DNA of 64,000 nt from an uncultured Gammaproteobacteria bacterium (GTDB taxonomy: Bacteria; Pseudomonadota; Gammaproteobacteria; GCA-001735895). The translations under genes were made by a program, and so were the position numbers. Every line of letters starts with the position of its first letter. The first letter of the stretch is position 1. Positions 2,477 to 47,916 of this stretch are shown piece by piece. The notes beneath the pieces were generated by a model. It ran no database searches and was not told the DNA's origin. It saw only the letters and a program-made list of their open reading frames with translations. Where the stretch lies: NCBI GenBank assembly GCA_947259485.1, contig CAMYLU010000001.1, positions 140,281 to 204,280 of the forward strand, read 5' to 3'.

Positions 2477-2498
2477 AACCGCGGTATGGTCCCGGGTA

Positions 2499-17465: not shown

Positions 17466-17580
17466 TGGCGCTATAGCCCAGCGCTAGGTCCGTTCTCCCT
17501 CCTATGAGCGGACAAAGATCCGGAAACCCCATCCGGATCACACGTTTGTCCCTGGCAGTTATCTGCCAGGGCTTTTTTTT
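17466..17580 (+). ncRNA. Candidate small regulatory RNA at the Spot 42 (spf) / ErsA syntenic locus
   Basis: Lies in the 393-bp polA-engB spacer, on the same strand as polA. Consecutive hairpins: 17467-17472 with 17480-17485; GTCCG 17488-17492 with CGGAC 17509-17513, whose 16-nt loop carries CUCCCUCCU; GATCCGGA 17517-17524 with TCCGGATC 17532-17539. A terminator follows at 17550-17580. The 5' end is uncertain and could be near 17338 if the upstream ECF-type promoter is used. Confidence 0.55.
17550..17580 (+). terminator. Rho-independent terminator
   Basis: Stem CCCTGGCAG (17550-17558), loop TTAT, stem CTGCCAGGG (17563-17571), then C and a run of eight T (17573-17580). Confidence 0.85.
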
Positions 17581-18207: not shown

Positions 18208-18294
18208 ATCGATTGGGTTAGTGTTGAACGTGCGGCCCGGGTATGATATACATTTGCGCCCGAAATTTCCGACCATTTTCCCCCTGGAGAAATA

Positions 18295-18903
18295 ATGAAA
18301 GCGAGCCAAATTGGAGCCATGATTTTGGCCTTGTCCGGCCTGGTGTCATTCGCCGCGTATGCCGGTGATATCGAAGCCGGTAAAGCAAAGAGCGCCGTGT
18401 GTGCTGCTTGCCACGGAGCGGATGGAAACAGTACCAACGCGGCCTGGCCGTCGCTTGCCGGTCAGCATGCCAGTTACACATACAAGCAGTTAGCGGATTT
18501 CAAAGCCGGACGTCGTAACAATGCCTCGATGACCGGCATGGTGGCGCTGTTAAATGACGAGGACATGAAGAACCTCGCGGCTTTCTATGAAACTCAGCAA
18601 CCCAAAACGATGGCTTTCGATGGGGACATGATTGAAACCGGGGAAAGTATTTATCGAGGTGGTATTACCGAAACCAAAGTGGCCGCCTGTATGGGCTGTC
18701 ATGCTCCGAGCGGTCTGGGTAACGGCCCCGCTGGTTGGCCGTCTCTCAAGGGCCAGCATCCCGAGTACCTGGTAACTCAGCTGCAGAGCTTCAAGCAGGG
18801 AACACGTGCCAACGATACCGGCAAAATGATGCGTAACGTCGTGGTACGTATGTCAGATGAAGAAATGAAGGCGGTTGCGGCCTACATAGCGGGTATCCGG
18901 TAA
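18295..18903 (+). CDS. cc4: Dihaem cytochrome c4
   Basis: 202 aa. Signal peptide; two CxxCH motifs (CAACHG and CMGCHA), each followed by a distal Met region; GGAGA ribosome-binding site before the ATG; engB-cc4-dsbA order as in Pseudomonas. Confidence 0.9.
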   Translation: MKASQIGAMILALSGLVSFAAYAGDIEAGKAKSAVCAACHGADGNSTNAAWPSLAGQHASYTYKQLADFKAGRRNNASMTGMVALLNDEDMKNLAAFYETQQPKTMAFDGDMIETGESIYRGGITETKVAACMGCHAPSGLGNGPAGWPSLKGQHPEYLVTQLQSFKQGTRANDTGKMMRNVVVRMSDEEMKAVAAYIAGIR

Positions 18904-26899: not shown

Positions 26900-29800
26900 C
26901 GTGCTGGATTGCTGGCAGATAGATTTGCCGTGCACAATCCTGGAACAATGAATCTTCGAGCGGCCTGGTCGTATTCTGCTGCAACGCCAGCCGTATGAAT
27001 TCGTCTTCGCATTCACCCGGGGGCGCATTCCGGTATTGGCCCCCGTTCCAGCAAGCAAGCGCTTTGCTCATCGCAGCCTCAGGATCAGCCTGCGATGCAT
27101 AGGCGTAGCTGGTGTCCGGAAACACCGGTAGAGGATACTCGAGGCCTTGTTGAAACAGCGCGATATAGCTAGCCAGAATCTGTTTGGCTATACCTGCTTC
27201 GAGATATTCAAAACGAAGACCCTTTGTGTTCGGGATTAGCAATTGACTGCTCTCGTGCCGGGCTATCTGGTCGGTCGCAGATAAAGCCAGGTGATCAAGC
27301 CAAAGCGACATTAGTGCTCTGCTCTTGACGGCTTTACTCGCGCTGAAGTGCATCAATCCAGTGTCGGGATAACAGGCGTTTACTTCTCCATACAGCAGTG
27401 GCAGTTCGTCAATTCGACACTCGACTGGCCTGGTAATGGGTTGCTTACCGCGAAAGTCCTCCAGTTGCTCGAGTAAAACACGGTATTCTGACTGAATTGC
27501 AAGCCATTCGGTTTGCGCGGCCCTGCCGTGCGGCAGCAGACCCAGCGCGGAAAACGTCGCATTGTCATTTTGACGACCGTTTAACTGGTTATCCGCAAGA
27601 CGTACTGCAAGATCCCACTTCTGTAGTCCCTGCAGGGTAAAACTTTCTTCGTCGTCGGAATCCGTTTCGGCAGGAATCCTGATACCCAGCCTCGAGCTGA
27701 AGAAGTATCGAATGGGATGGCTGAAGAATCGCTTCAACATCTGGAGATCGATGCCACTATCCAGGTTTAAGGTAGAGGCAAGTGATTCCTTCTGCCAGGC
27801 CCGGGTTCGATCAGGGGGTTTGCTTGCAGCAAGATATTGCGACGTGTCAAACCAGTATTGGTCGTAACCGGGATTGCCCGGTGTAAAATTTCTTGCAGAA
27901 AAAGCCTGCATCGGATGAATCCGTGAAATCTGCTCACTGACTGTTCGACCGCTGTCATCGGTTGCGAAGTTGATATCGAGGTAATCGAGCAGTTCGCGCA
28001 GCAACACCGAAGGCTGACATTCACTATTATCCTTGAAACTGCGCCCACAATAACTGAAATAAAGGTAACGCCGTGCGCACAACAGGGTTTCGAGCATCAG
28101 GTAGCGGTCTTCATCGGATCGAAGCGGGTCACCCGGGCGCCATTGGTGATGCATCAGGTCAAACTCGGCGGGATGGTCCCTGCGCGGGAAGGCGTTGTCC
28201 TGCATACCGAGCACACAGATAACCGGAAACGGGATGTTGCGCATGGGTTGCATACCACAAAAAGTGATCCCGCCTGAATAGAGGCGGCCCGGTTGTTGAT
28301 TTGTTGCCAGTTGTTTTTCCATCCAGTAACAAACCAGGGCAGGGCTCAATTCAACCGATTCTGATTGACCGATTTCACTGATCGCGTTACGCAACGGTAG
28401 CAGCAAGTCATCAGCCACAATTCGCGGCGAAAAGAACTCTTCGATCAATTGATGCAAACGCTGCTGCCATTCTCCGGCGCACGCAACAGTTCCAAGTTTT
28501 TCATGCCAGTATGTCAGGCGCTCGAAAAGGTACCTGAACTGGGATATGGCAACGCCACCATCGGTGCCTATCTCGGTAATCGGTGCAATACCATGCCAAA
28601 GGGTATCTTCGAGCATCGCGTAGCCGGCAAAAAACCGGTCCCAGGCCTGTTGCCAGGTATTTTCGTGAATTGCGGGCAGGCCGAGGGCTCGTCGCTGATC
28701 TGCGTCGATACCCCAGTGTACCCGGCTGGAATCAAGCAGTTGATATATAAGTTCCAGCATTTGCTGATCGATACCGAATCGATTTCGAATTTCGCCACAC
28801 TCGAGAAAGGCCAGCACATCGGAGCGGGTGAACCTGCTGCCGGGTAGTTTCAATAATTGCAGAAAAATACTCACCAGTGGATGGGCGTCGCTAACACTGA
28901 TATCGGAAATATTCCAGGCCAGGTCGGGGCGCTTGTCACCGGTATCCTGTTGAAAAACTGCTTCGATGTATGGTGCGTAGCGACTTATTTCGGGGACCAT
29001 AACCAGGATGTCTTCGCTCGACAGTTCAGGATGCCGATCAAGCAGCATCAGCAGGTGATCATGTAGCACCTGGCATTCCCGCATCGGGCTATGACATATT
29101 TGAACCGAGATGGAATCATCGATCGTTATTCCGGGTTCCGGTTTTTCAAGATTAAACAGGCTCGCCTGCAGGCATTGCAGGGTGCTGTCATTGCCAGGAG
29201 GTTGATTATCTTCAATTTCATTGCCGCTAACCGATCCCATTTCAAGCAATAAATCCTGCATCACCTGCCCCTGTCGGCCCCAGGAAGCCAGCAAGCTGTT
29301 ACTGGAATCAAGATACTCTGCGTCGGCAGGATTTTGCAGGCGCATTTTCGCCTTTGCTTTTTCACTGACCAGGTCGGCCCAGTACTCGTCCGTGGGATTA
29401 TGCTGATAGAGAATTATTTCGGTTCTGCGCGCGACAGCGTTAATAAATTCGATGACAGGGGGTGCGAGACTGGACAGCGCAAACAGGCTGATACGTTCGG
29501 GAAGATTGATTTCGACGGGGCTGTTGTCGAGGCGGTCGATGATGCCTCCCATAATATCAACCCGATGAGGCTGCTTCCTGGCAGCAACAATTTTCCGCCA
29601 CAGCCGGGCCTGCCACTGGTTGTCGTTGCCATGCGACCAGTCGCGAATCAACTCCGGTCTATATACCTGGTAGTGGTCGAAGCTGATCGCGATTCGTTGC
29701 GCCAGTTGCCAGCGCTTGATACCGCTCTGGTCGTCATCGAGATACCAGCGCAATGATGCAAACCTATCCTGACTCAGCAGCCCGGGCAAGGCTGCAAAAA

Positions 29801-30086
29801 TCTGCCAACCGAGCAAGTCCCTGGAATAGGGGTCTTGATGAGGCAGTTCCTGCAGTATCCGGCCGGCTAGTTCCCATATCCACTCTCCCACCTGGGGATA
29901 TTGGATGTTTGCCGCGATTCCCTGTTGTTGCGCGATACGCAGATTCAGCCAACGCGACATCGCGTAGGTCGGGACCACGATTACCTCGTGCGCGAACGGG
30001 TCTGTCAATGGCTCGACGGCAAGATGCTGCGTTAACCGCGATTGTAGCGTTTCGATTCGATTGGAGCTCAGGATGCTTAAAGCCAT
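26883..30086 (-). CDS. recC: Exodeoxyribonuclease V gamma subunit RecC
   Basis: 1067 aa. N-terminus MALSILSSNRIETLQSRL; recC-recB-recD order. Confidence 0.92.
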   Translation of the reverse strand: MALSILSSNRIETLQSRLTQHLAVEPLTDPFAHEVIVVPTYAMSRWLNLRIAQQQGIAANIQYPQVGEWIWELAGRILQELPHQDPYSRDLLGWQIFAALPGLLSQDRFASLRWYLDDDQSGIKRWQLAQRIAISFDHYQVYRPELIRDWSHGNDNQWQARLWRKIVAARKQPHRVDIMGGIIDRLDNSPVEINLPERISLFALSSLAPPVIEFINAVARRTEIILYQHNPTDEYWADLVSEKAKAKMRLQNPADAEYLDSSNSLLASWGRQGQVMQDLLLEMGSVSGNEIEDNQPPGNDSTLQCLQASLFNLEKPEPGITIDDSISVQICHSPMRECQVLHDHLLMLLDRHPELSSEDILVMVPEISRYAPYIEAVFQQDTGDKRPDLAWNISDISVSDAHPLVSIFLQLLKLPGSRFTRSDVLAFLECGEIRNRFGIDQQMLELIYQLLDSSRVHWGIDADQRRALGLPAIHENTWQQAWDRFFAGYAMLEDTLWHGIAPITEIGTDGGVAISQFRYLFERLTYWHEKLGTVACAGEWQQRLHQLIEEFFSPRIVADDLLLPLRNAISEIGQSESVELSPALVCYWMEKQLATNQQPGRLYSGGITFCGMQPMRNIPFPVICVLGMQDNAFPRRDHPAEFDLMHHQWRPGDPLRSDEDRYLMLETLLCARRYLYFSYCGRSFKDNSECQPSVLLRELLDYLDINFATDDSGRTVSEQISRIHPMQAFSARNFTPGNPGYDQYWFDTSQYLAASKPPDRTRAWQKESLASTLNLDSGIDLQMLKRFFSHPIRYFFSSRLGIRIPAETDSDDEESFTLQGLQKWDLAVRLADNQLNGRQNDNATFSALGLLPHGRAAQTEWLAIQSEYRVLLEQLEDFRGKQPITRPVECRIDELPLLYGEVNACYPDTGLMHFSASKAVKSRALMSLWLDHLALSATDQIARHESSQLLIPNTKGLRFEYLEAGIAKQILASYIALFQQGLEYPLPVFPDTSYAYASQADPEAAMSKALACWNGGQYRNAPPGECEDEFIRLALQQNTTRPLEDSLFQDCARQIYLPAIQHGEKSA

Positions 30087-35100: not shown

Positions 35101-37632
35101 ATGCCATCGATTAAGTCTCTATTGCGCCGCGACTGGTTTATCGGACTGGTCATTACAATCTTGTTCCTGTACCTCGCAGAGGCAGGCTGGATGGCTGCGC
35201 TCGATCGCCAGGCTTATAATTTTGGAGCGAAGTTTTCTGCGGCTAAAGAGCCGCACGAAGATATCGTAGTAGTTGCCATTGATGACAAATCGATACAGGC
35301 ACTCGGAGCGTGGCCCTGGTCGCGCGAGGTACTGGCTAAAACCACGCGTCTACTGTCCAGGGCAAAGCCCTCTGTCATGGGTTTTACGATGCCATTCGAC
35401 ACGGGTCAGCACGGTGCCGGATTGTCTTCGTTGGCCGGGTTGCGCGCCATCCTCAGTAAAGAGAAAAAACTCAGCAAGCGGGTTAACAAGGCTCTAAGAA
35501 GGGCTGAGGTGAACCTGCATGGCGATAAGAACCTCGCCAGCAGTTTTAAATCTGGCGGTCGAATCGTCCTCGCGATGCCCTATACCCCTACCGAAAAACC
35601 ATTGACGGGACTAAGTTCTTCGCTACCCCAATACATGCAAAAATTTGCTTTACCCAAGGTTAGTGCAAATGGAGGTAGTCGCGGTTTCGGCTGGCCATCG
35701 CCGAAAATTAACCGGGCTTCAGAAATCTCCCCGCCCATTGAACTATTGGCAAAGCAGGCGGGTGGGATTGGTGTAATCAGCCTTGTCGAACCGTTCAACG
35801 GTGAACCGTTGATCGTACAATACGGCAGCGATTATCTGCCATCGTTTTCACTAATGCTGGCAGCTCGCAGTAAAGGTATGTCAGTGCAGCATATCGAATC
35901 CAGGGCCAGTGCCAGGCCGATGCTCGGCGGTGATGATCTTGGTGCGGACATAAACTTCGGCATCTACCCGCGCTTTTATAAAGACAAGGATGGTAAATCG
36001 GCTTTCAAGATATACTCGTTAATTGATGTTCTTAACGGAGGTGTGGCCACGGATGTTTTTCGTGACAAGATTATTATCGTTGGATTGACGTCACCAGGCA
36101 TTGCGCAGCCGCGTTTGACACCCACGGGACAGGCGATTTCATCGACAGTGGCTATCGCCCATACGGTCTCAAGTCTGCTCAACAATGAACAATACCGTTT
36201 GCCGGACTGGGCCGGCTGGGCACAGCGTGGAATTATTGTCGTGGTCGGACTTTACCTGATGCTGGTAATGGGTCGTTTTCGCCCCAACACCGCATTTTTT
36301 TTAAGCCTGTTTCTGATACTAATGATTTTCAATGCGCATTTTATGCTGATGAGCTCGCAGTCGTTATGGTTGCCGATGATGTCCGCGGTGGCCATGTTAA
36401 TCGTTGGGCATTTGATACTGGGAACGCGGCAGTCGGTGAATGCACGTTTAAGCCTGGTGCGGGGCGAGCTGTCGACTGCAAATCGTCTACTCGGGCAGTC
36501 GTTGCATGCGCAGGGAAACCTGGACCAGGCCTTTGCAAAGTATCGCAGCTGCCGGGCAGATGAATCACTGCTTGGACAGGTTTACAACCTGGGTCTTGAC
36601 TATGAACGCAAGCGGCAACATAACAAAGCGGCGGCAGTCTTCAAGTTTATCTTTGAGCACGATGCCAAGTTCAGCGACGTAAGTGAGCGCATACAGCAAA
36701 ACGAAAACGCGGCCAATGCGGTGGTTCTCGGCAGTCGAGACCCAACTGGTCCCGGTCCGAATCTGATTTCTGGTGCAGATACACTGGAGAAGCCGAAACT
36801 GGGTCGCTACCGTATCGAAAGTGAAATCGGTCGCGGTGCGATGGGAATGGTTTATCTCGGCCAGGACGACAAGATCGGCCGTACCGTGGCAATCAAGACG
36901 ATGTTGCTATCGGATGAGATAGAAGACGAAATGCGCGATGAGGTTCGCACCCGTTTTTTTCGTGAAGCAGAGGCCGCTGGAAGGCTTGATCATCCCGGTA
37001 TCGTTACTGTTTACGACGTCGGGGACGAGCAGGATCTAGCCTATATCGCGATGGATTATCTCAAGGGCAAGGACCTGACAGCATACACCAGTCCCAAAAC
37101 ACTGCTGCCGGTAAGCGAGGTATTTAACATCATTATCAACGTTGCGACGGCACTAGATTATGCCCACCAGCAGCATGTCGTGCATCGAGATATCAAGCCG
37201 GCGAACATCATTTACGATGACGAAAAACGCGTTGCCAAGATAACCGATTTTGGCGTTGCCTGTCTCACCGACGCGAGCAAAACCAAAACCGGCACCGTAA
37301 TCGGCAGCCCCTATTACATGTCGCCCGAACAGCTTGCCGGCAAGAAAGTAGATGGCCGCGCAGACCTTTTTTCACTAGGGGTGATGATGTTCCAGATGCT
37401 ATGTGGTGAATTACCATTCAAGGGCGATTCAATCGCCAGCCTGATGTATAACATCGCCAATGAGAGGCATCCCGACATCCGGCGTTTTCGTTCCGACCTG
37501 CCGAACTGTGTCAATAACCTGATTGACAGGATACTGGAAAAAGAAGCGCAGCAGCGTTTTGAAAGCGGCCAGGAAATGGCAGATACAATGAAACTTTGCC
37601 AGGAGCATATCCGCGAGATGGAAGCCGCCTGA
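35101..37632 (+). CDS. CHASE2 sensor domain - TM - TPR-like linker - Hanks-type Ser/Thr protein kinase
   Basis: 843 aa. N-terminal TM helix plus a periplasmic CHASE2-like region (VVVAIDDKSIQALGAWPWSR). A TM cluster lies around aa 370-440. Kinase motifs: GRGAMGMV, VAIK, HRDIKPANII, DFGVA, YMSPEQ. Confidence 0.8.
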   Translation: MPSIKSLLRRDWFIGLVITILFLYLAEAGWMAALDRQAYNFGAKFSAAKEPHEDIVVVAIDDKSIQALGAWPWSREVLAKTTRLLSRAKPSVMGFTMPFDTGQHGAGLSSLAGLRAILSKEKKLSKRVNKALRRAEVNLHGDKNLASSFKSGGRIVLAMPYTPTEKPLTGLSSSLPQYMQKFALPKVSANGGSRGFGWPSPKINRASEISPPIELLAKQAGGIGVISLVEPFNGEPLIVQYGSDYLPSFSLMLAARSKGMSVQHIESRASARPMLGGDDLGADINFGIYPRFYKDKDGKSAFKIYSLIDVLNGGVATDVFRDKIIIVGLTSPGIAQPRLTPTGQAISSTVAIAHTVSSLLNNEQYRLPDWAGWAQRGIIVVVGLYLMLVMGRFRPNTAFFLSLFLILMIFNAHFMLMSSQSLWLPMMSAVAMLIVGHLILGTRQSVNARLSLVRGELSTANRLLGQSLHAQGNLDQAFAKYRSCRADESLLGQVYNLGLDYERKRQHNKAAAVFKFIFEHDAKFSDVSERIQQNENAANAVVLGSRDPTGPGPNLISGADTLEKPKLGRYRIESEIGRGAMGMVYLGQDDKIGRTVAIKTMLLSDEIEDEMRDEVRTRFFREAEAAGRLDHPGIVTVYDVGDEQDLAYIAMDYLKGKDLTAYTSPKTLLPVSEVFNIIINVATALDYAHQQHVVHRDIKPANIIYDDEKRVAKITDFGVACLTDASKTKTGTVIGSPYYMSPEQLAGKKVDGRADLFSLGVMMFQMLCGELPFKGDSIASLMYNIANERHPDIRRFRSDLPNCVNNLIDRILEKEAQQRFESGQEMADTMKLCQEHIREMEAA

Positions 37633-37651: not shown

Positions 37652-39079
37652 TTAGACCAATGCCTTGAAGCGTGCCAGCGCTCTCTGGCGGGTTGTTTTT
37701 AAATCAAGAATTGGCGCCGGGTAGTCTGTGCCGAGCTTGATCCCCGCAGCAGCTAAAACCTCTTCACTCGCTTCCCAGGGTTTGTGCCGAAACCTGGCTG
37801 GAAGACCTGCGAGTTCAGGGCAGAATCGAAGCAGGTATTCCCCCTCAGGGTCAAATTTTTCACTTTGTAATACCGGGTTGAAGATTCGAAAGTAGGGCGC
37901 AGCGTCGGCACCGGACCCGGCACACCACTGCCAGCTTGCGGCATTACTGGCGAGGTCTGCATCTACCAGGCAATCCCAGAACCAGTTTTCACCGATACGC
38001 CAGTGAACGAGCATATTCTTAATCAGGAATGAAGCAACAATCATCCTGACGCGATTATGCATGTACCCGGTTTGCCAGAGCTCGCGCATCCCGGCATCGA
38101 TAATTGGAAACCCGGTACGGCCCTCGCGCCAGGCTTGTAAACCTGTCGGCTTATCAAGCCACTGGAAACCATCAAACTTGCTATTGAAGTTCTGTTGCGG
38201 AAGCCCGGGGTAGTGATACAGCAAGTGGTAAGAAAACTCTCGCCAGGCGATTTCGCGTAAGAAATGGGCGGGTCCGTCACCATCATCATGCATGCGTGAG
38301 TGATCGATCTGGTGCCAGATCTGGTGCGGAGATATTTCGCCAAAATGCAGGTGCGGCGAGAGCCTGGAAGTTGCGTCGAGCGCGGGGAAATCCCTTCCAC
38401 GTTTGTAATCGGTAAGGGTATTCTGCCAGAAGGCATCGAATTTTTGAGCTGCCGCGCTTTCGCCGATTTGCCAATGGCTGCTCAGTGACTGATGCCAGCA
38501 GGCCGATGGCAATAGTTCGAGGTCATCGATCGATTCGCTGTTTTTAATGTCAAGGTTACACCATTGAACCTGTTCGGCTGGTGCTAGCGGTTGGCGTGGC
38601 GGTGGTGATGACAGGCAACCTTTCTGGTAAAACGGTGTGAAAACCCGGTAGGGGGTGCCGTCTTTCTTGCTGATGTCCCAGGGCTCCCATAACAGCGCAG
38701 CGTTGAAACTGCGGGTCTGGATATCTCCCGCGATCAGGTCCGCCTTTATTTGGGCGTCGCGTTTTATGCGCCAGGGCTCGTAGCAGCGATTCCAGAAAAC
38801 TCCTTCCAGTGGCAAACTCGCGGCGAGTTGTGCGATGACTTCACGCGCGTCGCCCCTGAAAATTCTGAGCCTGCCGTCAAGTGCAAGATTCAGTGCGTTC
38901 AACGAATGATGTAACCAAATCCTGCTCGCCGCACCCATCGCCCAATCTGCCGCGTTAACATCGTCCAGGATATAAATCGGCAGCACTTCGCCAGCCGCGG
39001 CCGCGGCGTTTAGCGCCGGGTTATCCGAGATTCTAAGGTCCTGGCGAAACCAGGCTATGGCGACGGGTTTTGTAGTCAA
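37652..39079 (-). CDS. phrB: Deoxyribodipyrimidine (CPD) photolyase
   Basis: 475 aa. N-terminus AIAWFRQDLRISDNPAL; FAD-binding region TGFPIIDAGMRELWQTGYMHNRVRMIVASFL; WQWCAGSGADAAPYFRIFNP. Confidence 0.93.
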   Translation of the reverse strand: MTTKPVAIAWFRQDLRISDNPALNAAAAAGEVLPIYILDDVNAADWAMGAASRIWLHHSLNALNLALDGRLRIFRGDAREVIAQLAASLPLEGVFWNRCYEPWRIKRDAQIKADLIAGDIQTRSFNAALLWEPWDISKKDGTPYRVFTPFYQKGCLSSPPPRQPLAPAEQVQWCNLDIKNSESIDDLELLPSACWHQSLSSHWQIGESAAAQKFDAFWQNTLTDYKRGRDFPALDATSRLSPHLHFGEISPHQIWHQIDHSRMHDDGDGPAHFLREIAWREFSYHLLYHYPGLPQQNFNSKFDGFQWLDKPTGLQAWREGRTGFPIIDAGMRELWQTGYMHNRVRMIVASFLIKNMLVHWRIGENWFWDCLVDADLASNAASWQWCAGSGADAAPYFRIFNPVLQSEKFDPEGEYLLRFCPELAGLPARFRHKPWEASEEVLAAAGIKLGTDYPAPILDLKTTRQRALARFKALV

Positions 39080-39102: not shown

Positions 39103-40062
39103 CTAGAGTGAATTAAGCAGCATGAGCTCGTCGGGATGCGGCTGCATGTAGTACGAGCGCTCGATGTATTGATTGGGATTACGGCGAAAGTGATGCCGCA
39201 ACAGGGTAATCGGAACAATCAGCGGCAGCAGCCCCAGGCGATAATTTTCTATACAGTTGCTCAATTCCTGCTTGTCGCTTTTATCAAGCTCCCGCTTCAG
39301 GTAACCGCGTACATGTTCAAGCACGTTAACGTGGTTCGATCGTTTTGCAAAAATTCTAAGAATGCTCATCATCTGTGCAAGATAGCGGGGTGCGTATTCC
39401 TCGATTGGGCCCTGATGCGCAGCCGAGAGCTCACGCCCCAGTTTACGTCCCAGGTCCTGGTTGTGACTATAGAGTATTAGCTTGTGGCGAGCATGAAAGT
39501 CGGTTAATGCCGCCCAGTCGAGCCCCGAGTGGATCATCTTATGCCAGCGCTGGTAGATGAAAACTCGTTTGACAAAGCTTTCGCGCAACACCGGATCGCC
39601 GAGACGACCCTCTTCCTCGACTGGCAGCGCCGGGAAGTTCTGCATCAGGGTTTCGGTATAGAGCCCGATGCCGCTGCGTTGCGGCTGGTCTTTATGGTAA
39701 ACCTTTACCCGCTCCATGCCGCAGCTGGGCGAATCTTTCTTGACGATGTAGCCGAATATCTTTTGTTGCCATGATTTCTGGTCATGGGAAATCTGGATCA
39801 GTGCCTGGGTGACGTTGAGTTCGGTATTCTTGTTGCCAACCGCCTCGGTCTTGCCCGCAACATCAACCAGGCGAATGGTTTCTCTCGGGACACCGAGCCC
39901 GATCGCCATTTCGGGGCAAAACGGGCGAAAACTGAAGTATTGGCCGAGTGTATCGAGAATGTAGCGGTTTTGTTTATGGCCGCCATCGAAGCGAACCTTC
40001 TCTCCGATCAGACAGCTGCTGATACCCAGCGGAATTTTTTCATGCCCGTCAGCGACGGGCAT
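39103..40062 (-). CDS. DUF523 (TudS-like) - DUF1722 (YbgA-like) fusion protein
   Basis: 319 aa. The N-terminal half has three spaced Cys (C17 in ISSCLIG, C49 in PFCPEM, C114 in SPSCGM), as in the [4Fe-4S] DUF523 family. The C-terminal half is YbgA-like. It sits directly upstream of phrB, as ybgA-phr does in E. coli. Confidence 0.75.
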   Translation of the reverse strand: MPVADGHEKIPLGISSCLIGEKVRFDGGHKQNRYILDTLGQYFSFRPFCPEMAIGLGVPRETIRLVDVAGKTEAVGNKNTELNVTQALIQISHDQKSWQQKIFGYIVKKDSPSCGMERVKVYHKDQPQRSGIGLYTETLMQNFPALPVEEEGRLGDPVLRESFVKRVFIYQRWHKMIHSGLDWAALTDFHARHKLILYSHNQDLGRKLGRELSAAHQGPIEEYAPRYLAQMMSILRIFAKRSNHVNVLEHVRGYLKRELDKSDKQELSNCIENYRLGLLPLIVPITLLRHHFRRNPNQYIERSYYMQPHPDELMLLNSL

Positions 40063-40091
40063 GGTTTTCTGGTGTTTGTTGGGGCGCGGGA

Positions 40092-40754
40092 TCAGGCATA
40101 ACCGCGACGGATAAACGGGTTAAGCAATCGATGCAGGAATCCGGTGAACTGAATCGGGCCCTCGGTGACCGCGAGGCAAATGCATTCGCGATCCTGGGTG
40201 GCGACAGGCGTGTGCTGGTCCTTCTCGTCTCTGACGAGGAAGTCACCCTGACCGTAAAGACCGGATTCATCGGAAAAGCTGCCCTCGAGGATTACCGTGT
40301 ACTCGTCACCCATGTGGGTATGCGTCGTCGCAGAACCACCGGGTTTGATTTTCAGCAATTCAACCTTGGCGCCATTGCTGTCGCGGCACAGCTCGGCGCT
40401 GTGAATGTCGGCAGAGACACGCTTCCAGTCCAGATCATCGTAACCCTTGTCGATAAACTGGTGCAGGCAACGTGGCACCCGGGAATCGACCTCACGGGGT
40501 TGTTCTTGCGCAAGATCCTGCGGCAATGAATCAAGCATGCCAAGCAGCTTGTTCTTAAGCTCGTCCGATGCCTTCGCAGGCTTCAGCTGCTGCATCAGTT
40601 CGCTGCCGACGTGATTAAGTTGTTGCAGCCGCTGCCCGCAGCTGTGGCAGTGTTCCAGGTGTGCCGAGATGCACAATGCCTGGCTTAATGGCAGGCTACC
40701 CGCAGAGTAGGCGGCCAGTAATTCGTCATAGGGATGGTTGTTTGATTGATCCAT
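40092..40754 (-). CDS. chrR: Anti-sigma factor ChrR (zinc-binding ZAS N-domain plus cupin C-domain)
   Basis: 220 aa. H7 plus H32-x3-C36-x2-C39 (AHLEHCHSCG) closely parallels the Zn ligands I recall for R. sphaeroides ChrR. Cupin motif HTHMGDEYTVILEGSF. Its start is 2 nt after the sigma-gene stop. Confidence 0.88.
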   Translation of the reverse strand: MDQSNNHPYDELLAAYSAGSLPLSQALCISAHLEHCHSCGQRLQQLNHVGSELMQQLKPAKASDELKNKLLGMLDSLPQDLAQEQPREVDSRVPRCLHQFIDKGYDDLDWKRVSADIHSAELCRDSNGAKVELLKIKPGGSATTHTHMGDEYTVILEGSFSDESGLYGQGDFLVRDEKDQHTPVATQDRECICLAVTEGPIQFTGFLHRLLNPFIRRGYA

Positions 40755-40756
40755 GG

Positions 40757-41344
40757 TTACCTCGTTACCAGTACTTCGAGTTTCTTCAATGCCAGGCGCA
40801 CACGGGATTTAACCGTGCCCAGTGGCAGCTTCAGCTCTTCGCTGGTTTGTTGATGGCTTTTCCCCTCCAGGTAGACTTTGGTTAATACTTCGGCTTGCTC
40901 TTGCGGCAGTTGTTCCAGTCCTTCACGTACACTTTGCTGGGCCTTGTTTTGCTGTACCATCTGGAATGGTCCGGGGCCCTCGTCTTCCATTTCGTTAAAG
41001 ATGTCGGTTGGATCGATTTCAGTCGCGTAACGACTATTGCGTCGCAAGTAATCGATGCGACAGTTTCGTGCCAGCGTGAAAATCCAGGTATTGAGGTTGG
41101 CAAGCTTTGCGTTATATTTTTCGGCCTTGAGCCAGACCCGGGTCATGACTTCCTGCACCAGTTCGTCTGCGACCAGGTCTGCACCGGGTTCACGCGCGAG
41201 ACTGTAAGCGCGGATGAGTGGCGTGTAGTGATCAAATAGCTCGGCGAATGCCGATTTGTCGCGCTTGTCAGCAACACGACCAATGCAGGCGCTCAGATGC
41301 GCAAGCTTGTCGCTCTTTCCTGTCGTGGTTGCCATGAGGGCCAT
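40757..41344 (-). CDS. ECF RNA polymerase sigma factor, ChrR-partnered (R. sphaeroides sigma-E type)
   Basis: 195 aa. Region 2: LVQEVMTRVWLKAEKYN...NTWIFTLARN. Region 4: SHQQTSEELKLPLGTVKSRVRLALKKL. Co-transcribed with chrR. Confidence 0.9.
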   Translation of the reverse strand: MALMATTTGKSDKLAHLSACIGRVADKRDKSAFAELFDHYTPLIRAYSLAREPGADLVADELVQEVMTRVWLKAEKYNAKLANLNTWIFTLARNCRIDYLRRNSRYATEIDPTDIFNEMEDEGPGPFQMVQQNKAQQSVREGLEQLPQEQAEVLTKVYLEGKSHQQTSEELKLPLGTVKSRVRLALKKLEVLVTR

Positions 41345-41378
41345 TATATACTCTCGATTTTGCGTTTATAGGCCTTAT

Positions 41379-41404
41379 TACGTCTGAGCGACGATACTGG
41401 ATCA
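41379..41404 (-). promoter_or_regulatory. Candidate autoregulated ECF promoter (TGATCC-N16-CGTA on the minus strand)
   Basis: The plus strand reads TACG (41379-41382), 16 nt, then GGATCA (41399-41404). The minus strand therefore reads TGATCC-AGTATCGTCGCTCAGA-CGTAATAAGG, ending about 35 nt upstream of the sigma ATG. Confidence 0.65.
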
Positions 41405-41409
41405 CTGAT

Positions 41410-41435
41410 TGATCCATTTCTTTATCGTGGGCGTA
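41410..41435 (+). promoter_or_regulatory. Candidate ECF promoter for the lipid-modification operon (TGATCC-N16-CGTA)
   Basis: TGATCC (41410-41415), spacer ATTTCTTTATCGTGGG, then CGTATAAGT from 41432, ending 46 nt upstream of the ATG at 41482. It lies back to back with the minus-strand copy, with 5 bp between the two -35 hexamers. Confidence 0.65.
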
Positions 41436-41481
41436 TAAGTCCCCCAACAACCTGTATCTTAAGCGAGAGAGATCTAATTGA

Positions 41482-41910
41482 ATGAATGCTGACACACCCA
41501 TAATCGAACACTTCAAGGATTATTTCCGGGTCCTGCACCAGTCCGACCTGAGCCAATTGCGCGAGTTCTATTCCGATCGCATCGTGTTCAAGGACCCGGT
41601 TCATGAAATCAGGGGCCTCGTTGAACTCGAGGACTACTTCACTTCGATGTGCTCCGACCTCAGCGATTGCCGCTTCGAGTATCTCGACGAACTCACCAGT
41701 GACAGCGTTGCCTATATCAAGTGGATGATGCACTTCAAACATCCGAAACTGGGCAATCGCCTTATTAGTGTGCGCGGTGTCAGCCATCTTCAGATCAGCG
41801 ACAAAATTGAATTTCACGAGGATTTCTATGACATGGGCGCGATGCTCTACGAACAACTGCCGTTGCTTGGCAACGTCACGCGTTGGCTTAAATTGCGCCT
41901 GGTGAGCTAG
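41482..41910 (+). CDS. NTF2/SnoaL-like fold protein
   Basis: 142 aa. Sequence HFKDYFRVLHQSDLSQLREFYSDRIVFKDPVHEIRG, typical of the SnoaL-like family. First gene of the operon. Confidence 0.7.
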   Translation: MNADTPIIEHFKDYFRVLHQSDLSQLREFYSDRIVFKDPVHEIRGLVELEDYFTSMCSDLSDCRFEYLDELTSDSVAYIKWMMHFKHPKLGNRLISVRGVSHLQISDKIEFHEDFYDMGAMLYEQLPLLGNVTRWLKLRLVS

Positions 41911-41914: not shown

Positions 41915-42706
41915 ATGAACGGCAAAACACCCAAGGTGATATGGATTACCGGTGCCAGTAGTGGCCTCGGCAGGAGCCTGGCGCTGCAGCTTGCCAACCA
42001 GGGTAACCGGGTGATTGCATCGGCCCGTAACCAGGCAGAGCTTGAAAAGCTCGCTGCGCAGAATACAAATATTGTCGCCCTGCCTTGTGATATCACCGAT
42101 GAAGAAGCAATGCAATCGCTAAGCTCGCGCATCGAGGAAATCTCACCAGCGCTCGACCAGGTGATACTGAACGCCGGAAACTGTGAGTATCTCGATTTTC
42201 CCGATCCCGACTGGTCGGCTGTGCGCCGTGTCATGGAGGTGAACTTTTTTGGCACGCTTAACTGCGTCAAGCTTGCGCTGCCCTTATTAAAGAAAAGTAA
42301 CAGCGATCGCCCCCACGTGGTAGCAGTCGTTTCGCAGGTGACTGCCGCGCCGTTCCCAAGGGCCGAGGCCTACGGGGCTTCGAAGGCAGCGATGCGTTAT
42401 TTCTTCGACAGTTTGCGCATGGATCTCGCGGCCGATGACATTGATGTGACAGTGGTTAATCCCGGCTTTGTCGATACCCCGCTGACGCGCAAGAATGATT
42501 TCCCGATGCCTTTCCTGATGCAGGTGGATGAGGCGGCAGAACGCATCGTTAAAAATATTGCAGCAAGGCCCAGGCAGTATAGTTTTCCACTGCGACTCTC
42601 AGCCCTGTTGTCGCTGTCAAAAATCTTACCCGGCGTATGGCAAAAAATGGTAGCTGCGGACGCCGCTATGCCTGCAAAAGATTCCGGGGAAGGTGTGAGC
42701 AAATGA
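41915..42706 (+). CDS. Short-chain dehydrogenase/reductase (SDR)
   Basis: 263 aa. Cofactor motif ITGASSGLGRSLA; catalytic YGASKAA. Confidence 0.88.
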   Translation: MNGKTPKVIWITGASSGLGRSLALQLANQGNRVIASARNQAELEKLAAQNTNIVALPCDITDEEAMQSLSSRIEEISPALDQVILNAGNCEYLDFPDPDWSAVRRVMEVNFFGTLNCVKLALPLLKKSNSDRPHVVAVVSQVTAAPFPRAEAYGASKAAMRYFFDSLRMDLAADDIDVTVVNPGFVDTPLTRKNDFPMPFLMQVDEAAERIVKNIAARPRQYSFPLRLSALLSLSKILPGVWQKMVAADAAMPAKDSGEGVSK

Positions 42707-44001
42707 ATATTGCGATAATCGGTGCCGGGATTTCCGGCTTAACTGCCGCTTATTATTTGCATGATAAACACAATATTACCGTTTACGAAGCGGCGCCCCA
42801 AGTCGGTGGGCATACCGCAACGATCAACGTCGAGCACGAAGGTCGGCATTACGCGATCGACACCGGATTCATTGTTTACAATGACTGGACTTATCCGAAT
42901 TTTATCGAGTTGATGCAGGAACTGGGGGTTGAAACCCAACCTACCGAAATGAGTTTCAGCGTGCGTTGCGATGAAAGCGGCCTCGAGTATGGCGGAAATA
43001 ATCTGAATACCTTGTTTGCACAGCGTCGTAACCTGCTGCGACCTTCATTCCACCGGATGTTGCGTGATATTCTGCGCTTCAACCGCGAGGCGATTGCTGA
43101 TCTCGAAAGGGGGCGCATATCTGCGACAACCACGCTCGGCGAGTATCTTGTCGACAATCGTTATGGTGAGGCGTTCATATACCAGTACCTGCTGCCAATG
43201 GGATGCGCTATCTGGTCTGCCTCCACCGAGCGCATGGTCGATTTTCCACTGCTCTTTTTCACCCGGTTTTTTAAGAATCATGGTCTGTTAAGCGTTAACG
43301 ATCGACCGCAATGGCATGTCATCAAGGGTGGGTCAAGGCGTTATCTCGAGCCCCTGATCCAGGAGTTTAGCAGCGCCATCAGGCTGGACGCCAAAATCTC
43401 TGCCGTGCGCCGCCATCAGCAAGCGGTAGAACTGGTCATGGCAAACGGGCTCACGGTACAATACGACCAGGTGGTTTTCGCCTGTCACAGCGACCAGGCG
43501 CTTGGATTGCTCGGAGATGCGTCCCGGGTCGAGCGTGACGCGCTCGAAGCGATTCCCTACCAATCCAACGAGGTGGTACTGCATACCGATGAGAGCCTGT
43601 TACCGCGTCATCGTGCGGCGTGGTCGAGCTGGAACTACTGGTTACGTGAGCGACATCAGCAGCGAGCAGTGTTGAATTACAATATGAACATACTTCAGGG
43701 CTTGAAATCGGACACCACTTTCTGCGTTACGCTCAATGCGACCGAGTCGATATCGCCCGCAAAAATTATCGATAGCTTCAACTACAGCCACCCGGTGTTT
43801 TCACTGGAATCGGTAGCGGCGGCGCAAAAGATCCAGGACTTTAACGGGTTAAATCGTACCTGGTTTGCAGGCGCCTACCTGGGTAATGGATTTCATGAAG
43901 ATGGTGTTGTCAGTGGACGACGCGTTGCCGATGCAATTAACCAGCTTGTGCCCTCGATGCCGGTGGATATCGGCTCATTCGACGATGTCGCTTATGCATA
44001 G
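42703..44001 (+). CDS. FAD-dependent oxidoreductase, amine-oxidase/desaturase-like (candidate UfaD-type fatty-acyl desaturase)
   Basis: Dinucleotide fold MNIAIIGAGISGLTAAYYL. ATGA overlap with the SDR stop. The track start at 42637 lies inside the SDR gene and is rejected. Confidence 0.8.
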   Translation: MNIAIIGAGISGLTAAYYLHDKHNITVYEAAPQVGGHTATINVEHEGRHYAIDTGFIVYNDWTYPNFIELMQELGVETQPTEMSFSVRCDESGLEYGGNNLNTLFAQRRNLLRPSFHRMLRDILRFNREAIADLERGRISATTTLGEYLVDNRYGEAFIYQYLLPMGCAIWSASTERMVDFPLLFFTRFFKNHGLLSVNDRPQWHVIKGGSRRYLEPLIQEFSSAIRLDAKISAVRRHQQAVELVMANGLTVQYDQVVFACHSDQALGLLGDASRVERDALEAIPYQSNEVVLHTDESLLPRHRAAWSSWNYWLRERHQQRAVLNYNMNILQGLKSDTTFCVTLNATESISPAKIIDSFNYSHPVFSLESVAAAQKIQDFNGLNRTWFAGAYLGNGFHEDGVVSGRRVADAINQLVPSMPVDIGSFDDVAYA

Positions 44002-44785
44002 CGCGATCTACCAGGGTTACTTGCGTCACCGTCGCTTTACGCCGCATGCGCACCGCTTCAGCTACCAGGTTTTCATGATGTATCTGGACCTTGACGAATT
44101 GGACAAAGTCCTCGCCCAGTCGCCTTTCTGGTCGCGCAAACCGTGGCGTCCAGCACGCTTTAAGCGCAGCGATTTTCTGGGTGACCCCGCAGTACCTTTG
44201 AAACAGGCGGTGAAGGAAAGAATCCACGACGAAACCGGGCATTGGCATGAAGGCCCGATTCGAATGCTGGCGAACCTGCGTTACTTCGGTTTCAACATCA
44301 ATCCGATAAGCTGTTACTACTGCTTCGATGCACAGCAAGCGCTGCAGTTTATCGTTGTCGAAGTCACCAACACACCGTGGAACGAACGCCAGAGTTACGT
44401 GATCAAATGCGATCCGAAACAGCGCTTTCAGCGCAGCCAGTTTCAAAAATTAATGCACGTTTCACCATTCAATCCGATGAACATGATGTATCACTGGTGT
44501 AGCAACAATCCGCAGCGGGTCTTGAGCCTCAATCTCGAAACCGAGCGCGATGGGGAAATCGATATGGATGCGACCATGGCGTTAAAAAGACAGGATATCA
44601 ATGGCGCGTCTCTCGCGCGAATCTTGCTACGACATCCGTGGATGACGGCCAAGGTCGCATTGACGATTTACTGGCAGGCTTTGAAACTCTGGGTCAAGCG
44701 CAATCCGTTCTATGATCACCCCAAAACCCGGAATTGGGACCACCAAAATCAACCAACAATAACCAGACTGAAGACAAAGACATGA
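43994..44785 (+). CDS. DUF1365 family protein (candidate UfaO-type furan-forming enzyme)
   Basis: Starts MHSAIYQGYLRHRRFTPHAHRFSYQVFMMYLDLDELD, a typical DUF1365 N-terminus. 8-nt overlap with the upstream gene. The track start at 43865 is rejected. Confidence 0.75.
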   Translation: MHSAIYQGYLRHRRFTPHAHRFSYQVFMMYLDLDELDKVLAQSPFWSRKPWRPARFKRSDFLGDPAVPLKQAVKERIHDETGHWHEGPIRMLANLRYFGFNINPISCYYCFDAQQALQFIVVEVTNTPWNERQSYVIKCDPKQRFQRSQFQKLMHVSPFNPMNMMYHWCSNNPQRVLSLNLETERDGEIDMDATMALKRQDINGASLARILLRHPWMTAKVALTIYWQALKLWVKRNPFYDHPKTRNWDHQNQPTITRLKTKT

Positions 44786-46041
44786 ATACTGTAAATCCCT
44801 CCGTAGTTAAAGTGCCCGAAAAACCAGGCCTTATAGATGGTTTTGCCAAGAATCAGCTGCTCAAGCGCCTGCAACAGATGCCGCGTGGATACCTGTTGAT
44901 TGAAGATGGCGACGAGTTACACGGTTTTGGAAATCCGGCTGACGAGATCGATGTCAAGGCAAAGATCGTTATCCAGGATCCCGGTACCTACAGGGATATC
45001 GCCTTTGGTGGCTCCATCGGCGGCGCAGAGGCGTATATGCTGGGTAAATGGACCACACCGAACCTGGTGGACGTTGTGCGCCTGATGTCGGTCAATATCG
45101 ATTTTCTGAATGAAATGGATGATTCAAAATCAGTGCTTCAACGTGCCGGGGACAAGGTTTTTCACCTGCTCAACCGCAACACCGAAAAGCAGGCGCGTGA
45201 CAATATTTCGCGGCATTACGATTTGAGCAACGACTTTTTCGAATTATTTCTCGATCCGGAAATGATGTACTCGGCGGCAATCTTTCCAAGTGTGGACGCC
45301 GATCTCGATGAAGCAGCGCTGCACAAGCTAGACGTTATCTGCCGTAAACTCGAGCTCAAGCCCAGTGATCACCTGCTTGAAATTGGAACCGGCTGGGGTG
45401 GTCTGGCGATTTATGCGGCCCGGCATTATGGCTGCCGGGTAACGACCACAACGATTTCACGAGAACAGTACGATACAGCAACCCGGCGAGTGCAGGACGA
45501 AGGCCTCGACGGAAAGATCACGGTTCTATTCGAGGATTATCGAAACCTGAGCGGGCGTTACGACAAGCTGGTCTCGGTGGAAATGATCGAAGCGGTGGGT
45601 CACGAGTTCTACAAGCAGTATTTCAGCGGCTGTGCGGCGTTGCTGAAGGATGATGGCCTGATGCTACTGCAGGCGATTACGATACCGGATCAACGCTACC
45701 AGTACGCGCGAAAGTCGGTTGATTTTATCCAACGCTACATTTTCCCGGGTGGCTCATTGCCGAGCCATGAAGCGATTATTTCGTCGGTCAGGTCGAACAC
45801 CGACCTGCTGATGGTCGGGATGCAGGAGATCGGTGAAGACTACGCCAGGACGCTCGAAGTATGGCGTGAGCGTTTTTTGGCGAAACTGGATGAAGTCAAG
45901 GCACTGGGTTTCGATGACTATTTCATCCGCATGTGGAACTACTACCTGTGCTACTGCCAGGGCGGATTCGAGGAGCGAATTATCGGCACCTCGCAAATAC
46001 TGTTTGCAAAACCTGATTGGCGCAGGACTGGCCAGTCTTGA
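44782..46041 (+). CDS. Cyclopropane-fatty-acyl-phospholipid synthase family SAM-dependent methyltransferase
   Basis: SAM motif LLEIGTGWGGLAIYAA, then YYLCYCQGGFEE near the C-terminus. ATGA overlap with the DUF1365 stop; the start at 44782 (MNTVNPS) is preferred to 44734. Confidence 0.85.
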   Translation: MNTVNPSVVKVPEKPGLIDGFAKNQLLKRLQQMPRGYLLIEDGDELHGFGNPADEIDVKAKIVIQDPGTYRDIAFGGSIGGAEAYMLGKWTTPNLVDVVRLMSVNIDFLNEMDDSKSVLQRAGDKVFHLLNRNTEKQARDNISRHYDLSNDFFELFLDPEMMYSAAIFPSVDADLDEAALHKLDVICRKLELKPSDHLLEIGTGWGGLAIYAARHYGCRVTTTTISREQYDTATRRVQDEGLDGKITVLFEDYRNLSGRYDKLVSVEMIEAVGHEFYKQYFSGCAALLKDDGLMLLQAITIPDQRYQYARKSVDFIQRYIFPGGSLPSHEAIISSVRSNTDLLMVGMQEIGEDYARTLEVWRERFLAKLDEVKALGFDDYFIRMWNYYLCYCQGGFEERIIGTSQILFAKPDWRRTGQS

Positions 46042-46061: not shown

Positions 46062-46556
46062 GTGAAGAAGATACTGATCAACCTGGCACTATTCCAGATC
46101 GGCTGGTTCGTTTGTGTCATCGGGGGCGATATCTATGCCGTCATTTTTACAGTAGCAGCGCTGCTTATCCATAACTGGCTGGTGTTGAGCAATTTCGTCG
46201 AGTGGAAGTTAATTGCAATCGTCGTAGCCGTCGGCTGCCTGTGGGATATACTGATGGCGCAAACCGGGGTCATTCAATACGGCGATACCCTGGTGCTCGG
46301 AATCCCGCTTTGGCTGGTATGCCTGTGGATATTGTTTGCCACCACTTTCATGCACGGCCTGTTCTGGATGAATCGACATCTCCCGCTGGCAGTGATATTT
46401 GCGGCGGTGCTTGGACCGGCCAGTTACTGGTTGGGGAGCAATTTGACAGACGCCGAACTTGGATTGCCACTGATGACATCAATGTTGATCATGGCCATTG
46501 GATGGGCGCTGTTGTTTCCATCTGGAATCTACTACGCGGGAAAACTTAAATCATGA
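46062..46556 (+). CDS. DUF2878-like small integral membrane protein
   Basis: 164 aa, 4-5 TM helices, GTG start. This is the position DUF2878 usually occupies after the CFA-synthase-like gene in these clusters. The family call is from memory of cluster composition. Confidence 0.6.
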   Translation: MKKILINLALFQIGWFVCVIGGDIYAVIFTVAALLIHNWLVLSNFVEWKLIAIVVAVGCLWDILMAQTGVIQYGDTLVLGIPLWLVCLWILFATTFMHGLFWMNRHLPLAVIFAAVLGPASYWLGSNLTDAELGLPLMTSMLIMAIGWALLFPSGIYYAGKLKS

Positions 46557-47386
46557 AGACCGGAACCCGAAACAAAAGCTGCTCTATGGTTGTTATCGCC
46601 CTGTTATCAGGAGTGATGATGCCCACCGCCTATGCCAACGACATTGTCGCCCAGACCATTGGCGAGGCCTTCGACCTCAAAAGCGACGAACCCCTGTACA
46701 GCGAAACCCATTGTCTCAGTGATGACGCGCTCGCACGCGAGGTGATTTATCGAGATGTCGAGGGTCGGCTGATTGCGCACAAAATTCTGAGCTACAGCAC
46801 GGGTCCGACAACACCATCCTTTGTGCAGCGTAATTTCTATTCGCAGGAATCGATCGAGGTTGAACTAAAGCAGGATGAAGTCACCATGACGGTAAAGGAT
46901 GAAAACAGTTCTGCGCCCGCAAAGGTTGTCTCGACCCGGCCCAGTGCAAATTTGCCTGTCGTGATCGATGCCGGTTTCGATGCATTTGTAACCGGTAACT
47001 GGGATAGTCTGTTAGCCGGTGAGAACAAGAGTTTCCAGTTTCCGTTTGCTGCTCGAGAAAGCCTGGTGAAGCTGCGCATCAAACCGACCAGCTGTAGCTA
47101 TGATAGCGAATCTGATCAATGCTTCAGGCTGGAAATGAATAACTGGTTCCTGCGCATGCTGGTGGCCCCGATTGAACTTGGATATGACACCAGGCTTAAA
47201 CGCCTCACCCGTTACCGGGGGCTTTCGAATATCGGTGATGGCAAAGGTGAAGGACTCGTGGTCGATATTCGTTACAACTACCAGGATGTCCCCGCCAAGG
47301 CCTGCAGTGTCAACGATCTGAAATTAACTGGAAAAGCGGTTGAGTGGAAGGTGTCGGCCTTCGATAGCCGGCAACGGGCGCTATGA
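46553..47386 (+). CDS. Secreted hypothetical protein
   Basis: 277 aa. Signal peptide MVVIALLSGVMMPTAYA-ND; ATGA overlaps on both sides; family not recognised. Confidence 0.6.
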   Translation: MKTGTRNKSCSMVVIALLSGVMMPTAYANDIVAQTIGEAFDLKSDEPLYSETHCLSDDALAREVIYRDVEGRLIAHKILSYSTGPTTPSFVQRNFYSQESIEVELKQDEVTMTVKDENSSAPAKVVSTRPSANLPVVIDAGFDAFVTGNWDSLLAGENKSFQFPFAARESLVKLRIKPTSCSYDSESDQCFRLEMNNWFLRMLVAPIELGYDTRLKRLTRYRGLSNIGDGKGEGLVVDIRYNYQDVPAKACSVNDLKLTGKAVEWKVSAFDSRQRAL

Positions 47387-47916
47387 AACTGATTGTTAAA
47401 GCCACGCTGGTCGCTTTCGCCCTGACGGTCGTCAGCGCCTGTTCATCGGTTACGATCGATGAATACGCCGGCAACAAGCCGCTACTGGTGCCGGAGAAAT
47501 TTTTTGATGGCCAGCTCAGCGCCCATGGTATTGTCAAGGACCGTGGCGGGCGGGTTATTCGCTACTTCAGCGCAAAAATTAAAGCCTACTGGGTCGATGG
47601 CATCGGTACCCTCGACGAAAGCTTTGTATTTGATGACGGCGAACAACAATCCCGCGTCTGGAAGTTGAAACCGCAATCAGACGGCAGCTATGTTGCGACT
47701 GCCGGTGATGTTATCGGTGAAGGGAGAATGAAAGCATCAGGTAACAGCCTGTTCCTGGATTACGTGTTGCGTATCCCCTATGGCGATAGCACGATTGACT
47801 TGCGTATCGATGACCGCATGTACCTGGTGTCGGAGCGAGTGTTGTTAAACGAATCAGTCATGACCAAGTGGGGTTTTAAGGTTGGTCAGATTACCCTCGT
47901 GATCGAAAAGGAATAA
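47383..47916 (+). CDS. DUF3833-like lipoprotein (lipocalin-like)
   Basis: 177 aa. Lipobox LTVVSAC-SS. GNKPLLVPEKFFDGQLSAHGIVKDRGGRVIRYFSAKI is typical of DUF3833. Last gene of the operon. Confidence 0.7.
   Translation: MKLIVKATLVAFALTVVSACSSVTIDEYAGNKPLLVPEKFFDGQLSAHGIVKDRGGRVIRYFSAKIKAYWVDGIGTLDESFVFDDGEQQSRVWKLKPQSDGSYVATAGDVIGEGRMKASGNSLFLDYVLRIPYGDSTIDLRIDDRMYLVSERVLLNESVMTKWGFKVGQITLVIEKE

Follow-up and report, generated by a model that had tools for sequence, protein, structure and literature searches.

A predicted pair of divergent ECF11-type promoters between a sigma-E–ChrR operon and a lipid-modification operon in an uncultured gammaproteobacterium

The system closest to the locus described here is sigma-E/ChrR of Rhodobacter sphaeroides, in which the ECF11 promoter motif is TGATCC(N15)GCGTA (PMC5036791). 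In that organism the genes RSP1091-1087 are 'divergently transcribed from rpoE-chrR' (PMC3546557), and furan fatty acid synthesis uses UfaD as its desaturase and UfaO as the enzyme that inserts the oxygen (PMC7380195). Related systems have been described in gammaproteobacteria. In Pseudomonas syringae the consensus TGATCC-N16-CGTA was found by ChIP-seq and qRT-PCR (PMC5507510), and in Shewanella the RpoE2 consensus was obtained by primer extension, the rpoE2 and pgpD starts lying downstream of TGATCC and CGTAAT (PMC4336711). According to PMC6852236, citing Dufour et al. 2008, some eight genes make up a core regulon that is conserved across alpha- and gammaproteobacteria; phrB is a core member in R. 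sphaeroides (PMC3546557) and P. syringae (PMC5507510).

We analysed a stretch of 64,000 nt (the window) from an uncultured Gammaproteobacteria bacterium (GCA_947259485.1, contig CAMYLU010000001.1, positions 140,281-204,280 of the forward strand; GTDB lineage Bacteria; Pseudomonadota; Gammaproteobacteria; GCA-001735895). A 57-bp element within it, at 41379-41435, very probably consists of two independent divergent promoters, both recognised by the ECF11 sigma factor (sigma-E of ChrR type) that is encoded next to them. A tRNA scan of the window gave no match, and an Rfam search of the window gave no family at gathering score.

Genes on either side of the control region

The sigma factor (195 aa; 40757-41344, minus strand; Pfam Sigma70_r2 and Sigma70_r4_2) has R. 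sphaeroides sigma-E/RpoE as its best PDB match (2Q1Z_A; 106.8 bits, E = 1e-29), the next ECF sigma factor scoring 54.7 bits. It is a Group IV sigma factor, containing regions 2 and 4 only, and is closest to R. sphaeroides RpoE. The chrR gene starts 2 nt past the sigma stop codon in the same orientation, the adjacency to ChrR that marks ECF11, and encodes a 220-aa zinc anti-sigma factor of the ChrR family with a C-terminal cupin (40092-40754, minus strand; Pfam Cupin_7). The TIGR02451 score of this protein is 186.9 bits, the cut-off being 124.5, and it aligns with PDB 2Z2S_B over 200 residues (120.7 bits, E = 7e-34). Both sets of metal ligands are present, those for zinc as H7 and H32-x3-C36-x2-C39 and those of the cupin as HxHxxxE...H (HTHMGDE...H). 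At the level of sequence, the matches to 2Q1Z_A and 2Z2S_B make the pair clear homologues of R. sphaeroides sigma-E and ChrR (ECF11).

Two further genes complete the minus arm. ybgA (39103-40062, minus strand), whose product is assigned by domain match as a YbgA-like protein with a 2-thiouracil desulfurase domain and DUF1722, starts 29 bp after chrR and is probably part of the same transcript. The last gene encodes a deoxyribodipyrimidine photolyase (37652-39079, minus strand; Pfam DNA_photolyase and FAD_binding_7); NCBIfam photolyase models also match, but below their cut-offs. The motif scan of the window found no ECF11 motif between the minus-arm genes, and this absence together with the short gaps suggests that ybgA and phr are co-transcribed with the regulator genes. 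The order sigma-ChrR-YbgA is retained in 14 relatives, with the photolyase also present in 12 of the 14, where the sequence extends that far. A hairpin with a strong 11-bp stem (TCATGCCCGTC...GACGGGCATGG) lies across the chrR-ybgA junction (40040-40064), takes in the ybgA start codon and could influence how the distal part of the minus-arm transcript is translated or how stable it is. Convergent with the photolyase gene, with stop codons 19 bp apart, is a gene for an 843-aa CHASE2-domain Ser/Thr protein kinase (35101-37632, plus strand).

The plus arm comprises eight closely packed genes and ends at 47916. Its first gene, assigned by domain match, encodes a SnoaL-like protein (41482-41910) and is the divergent neighbour of the sigma gene in 13 relatives; the second, also assigned by domain match, encodes a short-chain dehydrogenase resembling RSP1087 and PSPTO_1119 (41915-42706; PMC5507510 Table 2). 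These are followed by a UfaD-like protein of the FAD amine-oxidase family, the RSP1091 type of fatty acyl desaturase (42637-44001, with the true start probably near 42703; PMC7380195, PMC5507510 Table 2), and by a UfaO-like DUF1365 protein, the RSP1090 type of furan-ring-forming enzyme (43865-44785; Pfam DUF1365, 265 bits; PMC7380195). The fifth gene encodes a SAM methyltransferase of the cyclopropane/mycolic-acid-synthase family, cfa/UfaM-like (44734-46041; Pfam CMAS, 298.5 bits; PMC3546557, PMC7380195). The last three genes (46062-47916) are close-packed or overlap by 4 nt and encode a DUF2878 protein (46062-46556), a 277-aa protein that has no Pfam or NCBIfam match (46553-47386) and a DUF3833 protein (47383-47916). 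Photolyase, cfa-like methyltransferase, amine-oxidase/UfaD, DUF1365/UfaO and short-chain dehydrogenase genes, which compare with the published core regulon lists (PMC3546557; PMC5507510 Table 2), are all found among the genes of the two arms downstream of the promoter pair. The locus thus has every feature of ECF11 membership that can be tested on a sequence: the sigma factor, the adjacent ChrR, an autoregulatory promoter and core regulon genes.

As in R. sphaeroides, a homologous sigma/anti-sigma pair, judged by best PDB matches, is found together with the promoter consensus TGATCC-N16-CGTA (PMC5036791); the R. sphaeroides system is autoregulated. The regulator operon is also divergent, as there, from an operon with UfaD, the DUF1365 protein UfaO and a short-chain dehydrogenase (PMC3546557, PMC7380195). 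Unlike R. sphaeroides, the host is a gammaproteobacterium, and identity is about 40% at most (37-41% to alphaproteobacterial relatives). Photolyase and ybgA, which occupy the separate locus RSP2143-2144 in R. sphaeroides, are here joined to the regulator operon; the eight genes of the lipid arm start with the SnoaL-like one and include the cfa-like, DUF2878 and DUF3833 genes. The gammaproteobacterial ECF11 systems PSPTO_1043/PSPTO_1042 of P. syringae and RpoE2-ChrR of Shewanella oneidensis likewise have an experimentally supported TGATCC-N16-CGTA promoter before the sigma gene, and in them ECF11 promoters also precede photolyase, cfa, amine-oxidase and DUF1365 genes (PMC5507510, PMC4336711). 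In P. syringae, however, PSPTO_1121-1114 is a single operon of lipid and photolyase genes distant from the sigma gene (PMC5507510), and Shewanella has a separate promoter for ybgA-phrB-cfa (PMC4336711), whereas a single bidirectional control region here has the targets divided between its two arms. The differences from known ECF11 loci are confined to wiring.

Paired promoter motifs in the 137-bp spacer

Between the sigma ATG (41344) and the ATG of the first plus-operon gene (41482) lies a spacer of 137 bp, which contains two copies of TGATCC-N16-CGTA back to back, with exact matches at all four elements. The sigma-side copy, which serves rpoE-chrR, has its -35 element at 41399-41404 and its -10 element at 41379-41382 on the minus strand, the whole motif (41379-41404) lying 34 nt upstream of the sigma ATG. 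The operon-side copy has its -35 element at 41410-41415 and its -10 element at 41432-41435 on the plus strand. The 5 bp that separate the hexamers (41405-41409) read CTGAT. Downstream of CGTA, the minus-strand copy (41382-41379) continues with ATAAGG and the plus-strand copy (41432-41435) with TAAGTC. The sigma-side transcript is predicted to start at about 41370-41373, a few nucleotides downstream of CGTA, with a 5' UTR of about 27 nt, and the operon-side transcript at about 41441-41444, with a 5' UTR of about 39 nt; the starts of the two arms would then be about 70 bp apart. No sigma-70-like promoter was predicted in the 137-bp spacer.

An exact search of both strands of the window found TGATCC-N16-CGTA three times, at 17306-17331 (plus), 41379-41404 (minus) and 41410-41435 (plus). 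Dinucleotide-preserving shuffles gave a mean of 0.13 matches, and three were reached in none of 100 shuffles. All three matches are intergenic, in a window at least about 91% of which is coding. These results bear out the earlier note, which had described back-to-back hexamers 5 bp apart, N16 between hexamer and CGTA on each strand and a 137-bp spacer between the ECF sigma gene and an eight-gene operon, and had counted three motifs by eye, all of them intergenic, against a chance expectation of about 0.12. The many copies inside genes that it had feared do not appear in the exact search, nor does widening the spacer to 15-17 nt add any exact TGATCC/CGTA match in the window. The A/T-rich, AAG-containing tail that it described is present at both sites, but beyond the closest relatives its AAG is not retained; the 43 sites compared from relatives favour T/A and then A 3' of CGTA (CGTA-W-A).

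Relaxing the motif brought little. With one mismatch allowed, 7 additional matches appear in the window, each touching coding sequence, and scans with one or two mismatches gave no additional credible regulon member in the window. A looser scan, requiring exact CGTA and at least 4/6 in the -35 element, shows no intergenic enrichment in the window when the RecC-like ORF at 26883-30086 is taken as coding, as two relaxed 'intergenic' matches then become coding. This ORF belongs to a minus-strand region (23291-30086) with two very long overlapping ORFs, one of 1255 aa that is RecB/AddA-like by sequence motifs and one of 1067 aa that is probably RecC-like; longest-ORF gene maps mis-assign the region.

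A scan with the sigma protein, taking one genome per species, gave 18 uncultured gammaproteobacterial relatives with 70-92% sigma identity, the Olavius algarvensis Gamma 3 symbiont among them. Both promoters are retained in all 18, and 17 carry both motifs exact, just upstream of the sigma gene, with an invariant sigma-side -35 element; in the eighteenth (L015) this element is TGGTCC, a single mismatch. The operon-side -35 element is invariant wherever the relatives have the region, and its CGTA is conserved. The length of N16 is constant in all 18 relatives, whereas its sequence is free to diverge. Indeed, when the whole spacer is aligned across 14 genomes, the only conserved blocks are TACG (the invariant sigma-side -10 element), GGATCAC, TGATCCA and CGTAT, along with two translation-start regions, a pattern that reads as a clear phylogenetic footprint of two promoters. 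Gene order is kept in the relatives on both arms. In at least four relatives (L009, L013, L016 and L018) it is another CMAS-like gene that diverges from the sigma gene, and the promoter pair persists all the same. The gap between the -35 hexamers is 3-8 bp in about 17 of the 18 relatives and 34 bp in one: 3 bp in two, 4 bp in four, 5 bp in six, 6 bp in one, 7 bp in two, 8 bp in one and 34 bp in one. Together, regulator homology, the published consensus and conservation in relatives uphold the assignment to the promoter type of ChrR-regulated sigma-E (ECF11) that had been proposed earlier.

Several further features of the region can be recorded. In L009, L013, L016 and L018 the CMAS-family gene stands in place of the SnoaL-SDR-UfaD-UfaO operon, and the methyltransferase it encodes (about 1760-2650, minus strand of each locus) has 27-29% identity to that of the window. 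The spacer also conserves TATATAATG at the sigma start (41345-41353) and, some 8-10 nt ahead of the SnoaL start, CGAGAGCGA (41460-41481); both look like unusual conserved translation-initiation regions. Each TGATCC hexamer contains a GATC site (41399-41415 and 17306-17311), so that the pair puts two such sites 11 bp apart. As pure speculation, Dam methylation state could affect -35 recognition if the organism has a Dam methylase.

Independent promoters are not the only way to read this arrangement. The hexamers form a perfect 6+6 inverted repeat, GGATCA-N5-TGATCC, with centres 11 bp apart, and divergent operons frequently share a palindromic operator; the repeat could be the binding site of a dimeric transcription factor between the operons, with the CGTA elements incidental. 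A dimeric operator would need a constant gap and would be intolerant of the range seen in the relatives, where the half-sites are 3, 4, 5, 6, 7 or 8 bp apart and 34 bp apart in one. What is always the same is the 16 nt from hexamer to CGTA, and the TGATCC-N16-CGTA unit is also found singly, at 17306. An operator is therefore very unlikely. We give still less credence, indeed next to none, to the matches being a product of chance or the repeat being a hairpin or terminator. The shuffles speak against the former, and the motif pair is kept across the 18 relatives. As to the latter, a terminator-like pattern, TGGATCACTGATTGATCCA and then a T-rich run, does occur on the plus strand at 41398-41416, but both flanking genes start at the spacer and, because no gene ends there, such a match on a palindrome is meaningless.

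A different objection accepts both sites as real ECF11 promoters but holds that they are coupled, with holoenzymes either competing or assisting one another through the negative supercoiling of divergent transcription; if they compete, mutually exclusive occupancy would set the ratio of regulator to lipid operon. The twin-supercoil-domain effect on divergent promoters is established, and coupling would suit both the short gap in nearly all relatives and the closeness of the predicted starts. This short gap nevertheless ranges over 5 bp, roughly half a turn of the helix, and with one relative at 34 bp no single geometry is conserved; moreover, the short distance may simply have been inherited. 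Because the gap varies, a cooperative arrangement of fixed geometry is unlikely, and coupling in general we consider improbable, though a serious contender. For the same reason, the short gap looks like the compaction of two autonomous promoters, not a cooperative device.

With two independent promoters as the preferred reading, the homologous systems, from which we infer use of the motifs by the sigma factor, the inducing signal and the extent and co-transcription of each arm, suggest how the locus would operate. In an unstressed cell the zinc anti-sigma factor ChrR would keep sigma-E inactive. Singlet oxygen or organic-peroxide stress would inactivate ChrR, allowing sigma-E-RNA polymerase to fire both promoters. 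The minus promoter would drive rpoE-chrR-ybgA-phr, so that sigma-E is positively autoregulated, the anti-sigma factor is made anew and photolyase is produced. From the plus promoter the polymerase would read the eight-gene lipid-modification operon, whose UfaD-like, UfaO-like and CFA-synthase-like products would provide furan fatty acid functions. Positive autoregulation and co-induction of both arms, as known for the R. sphaeroides archetype, are supported by this analogy. With 5 bp between the -35 hexamers there may not be room for two polymerases together, and co-induction may hold at the level of the population rather than as simultaneous firing.

A third motif upstream of an sRNA-like element

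The third exact match to TGATCC-N16-CGTA (17306-17331, plus strand) lies in the spacer between the convergent genes polA (14512-17220) and engB (17614-18309) and is directed towards a conserved sRNA gene. Among relatives the motif is exact and in the same position in six (L030-L034 and L040), has one mismatch in L041 and L046 and two in L045, and is absent in L042-L044. A proximal promoter-like motif, GGAACTA-N16-TCTAC (17433-17460, plus strand), resembles the RpoE/AlgU (ECF02) consensus. The published form of that consensus is GAACTT...TC (PMC4336711 Table 1), and E. coli sigma-E promoters served as a further point of comparison; for sRNA genes such as ErsA the promoter type compared was GGAACTT-N16-TCnnA. 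All 13 relatives keep GGAACT unchanged, together with a conserved GTC(T/A)A(C/T), which in L037 reads GTCACA. Between the distal ECF11-type and the proximal sigma-E-type motifs there is a conserved box, GGGGTT(T/G)AA...CCCCA (about 17355-17384, plus strand). The box is kept in L044, which is without the ECF11-type motif, and the 5' extension may therefore have a role of its own.

Folding, terminator prediction and conservation define a conserved sRNA-like element of about 115 nt, with three hairpins and a rho-independent terminator, at 17466-17580 on the plus strand (MFE -53.4 kcal/mol, z = -6.3). Hairpin 2 has CUCCCUCCU as its loop, in appearance an anti-Shine-Dalgarno sequence. EngB led to 13 relatives, among which the element hardly varies and base pairing survives every substitution in a stem. 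Against Rfam Spot_42 (RF00021) it scores 16.4 bits (E = 1.6), below the gathering score of 80 for membership of that family. Spot_42 and anti-hemB (26.9 bits) were both rejected as identities in the polA-engB spacer, as these matches rest on generic hairpins and the terminator.

In E. coli the polA-engB/yihA slot holds spf (Spot 42), which has genomic position as its only feature in common with the sRNA-like element. The same slot in P. aeruginosa is presumably that of ErsA, which is sigma-22-dependent. ErsA has been called a functional orthologue of Spot 42 (PMC8395346). The order polA, sRNA and convergent engB/yihA, with a rho-independent terminator, is that of Spot 42 and presumably of ErsA. 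As for ErsA, which depends on sigma-22/AlgU in P. aeruginosa, an ECF02-type promoter motif lies directly upstream (PMC8395346, PMC7565897), the sigma dependence here being putative. Unlike either, the element in the clade of the window has a second, distal ECF11-type promoter motif stacked further upstream. For an sRNA gene driven from an ECF11 promoter there is a precedent in Pos19 (RSs0019) of R. sphaeroides, which lies behind a perfect ECF11 promoter, depends on RpoE(ChrR) and is induced by singlet oxygen in that organism; at 219 nt it comes close in length to the long form predicted here, about 240 nt (PMC5036791). Pos19, however, codes for a small protein and occurs in strains of R. sphaeroides only (PMC5036791), whereas the sRNA-like element is without a conserved ORF, at a different locus and without sequence relation to it. 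The distal motif has the look of a second promoter, specific to the clade, from which the long form would arise. That it is a functional ECF11 promoter in the window's clade, stacked about 125 bp upstream of the RpoE/AlgU-type promoter of the sRNA, is a tentative proposal to which we give somewhat less than even chances.

A probable ECF11 response in an uncultured marine clade

The locus repeats an arrangement already described in Rhodobacter, and the main finding brings no new mechanism for the specialist. What it does is to extend the conserved sigma-E/ChrR singlet-oxygen response to an uncultured marine gammaproteobacterial clade, the relatives of the Olavius Gamma 3 symbiont, in which the Rhodobacter-type divergent arrangement of regulator and furan-fatty-acid genes is also found. 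Moreover, the strictness with which TGATCC-N16-CGTA is conserved in the genomes of the relatives provides a clean pattern with which the regulon can be defined in their assembled genomes.

A new question could come only from the sRNA in the Spot 42/ErsA slot, if it is indeed under dual ECF control. One sRNA gene would in that case be read by two different ECF sigma factors, with the long form (about 240 nt) made under photo-oxidative stress and the short form (about 115 nt) under envelope stress. Two stress responses would then converge on a riboregulator of the anti-Shine-Dalgarno type, and the distal promoter would mark the entry of an older sRNA gene into the ChrR regulon, specifically in this clade.
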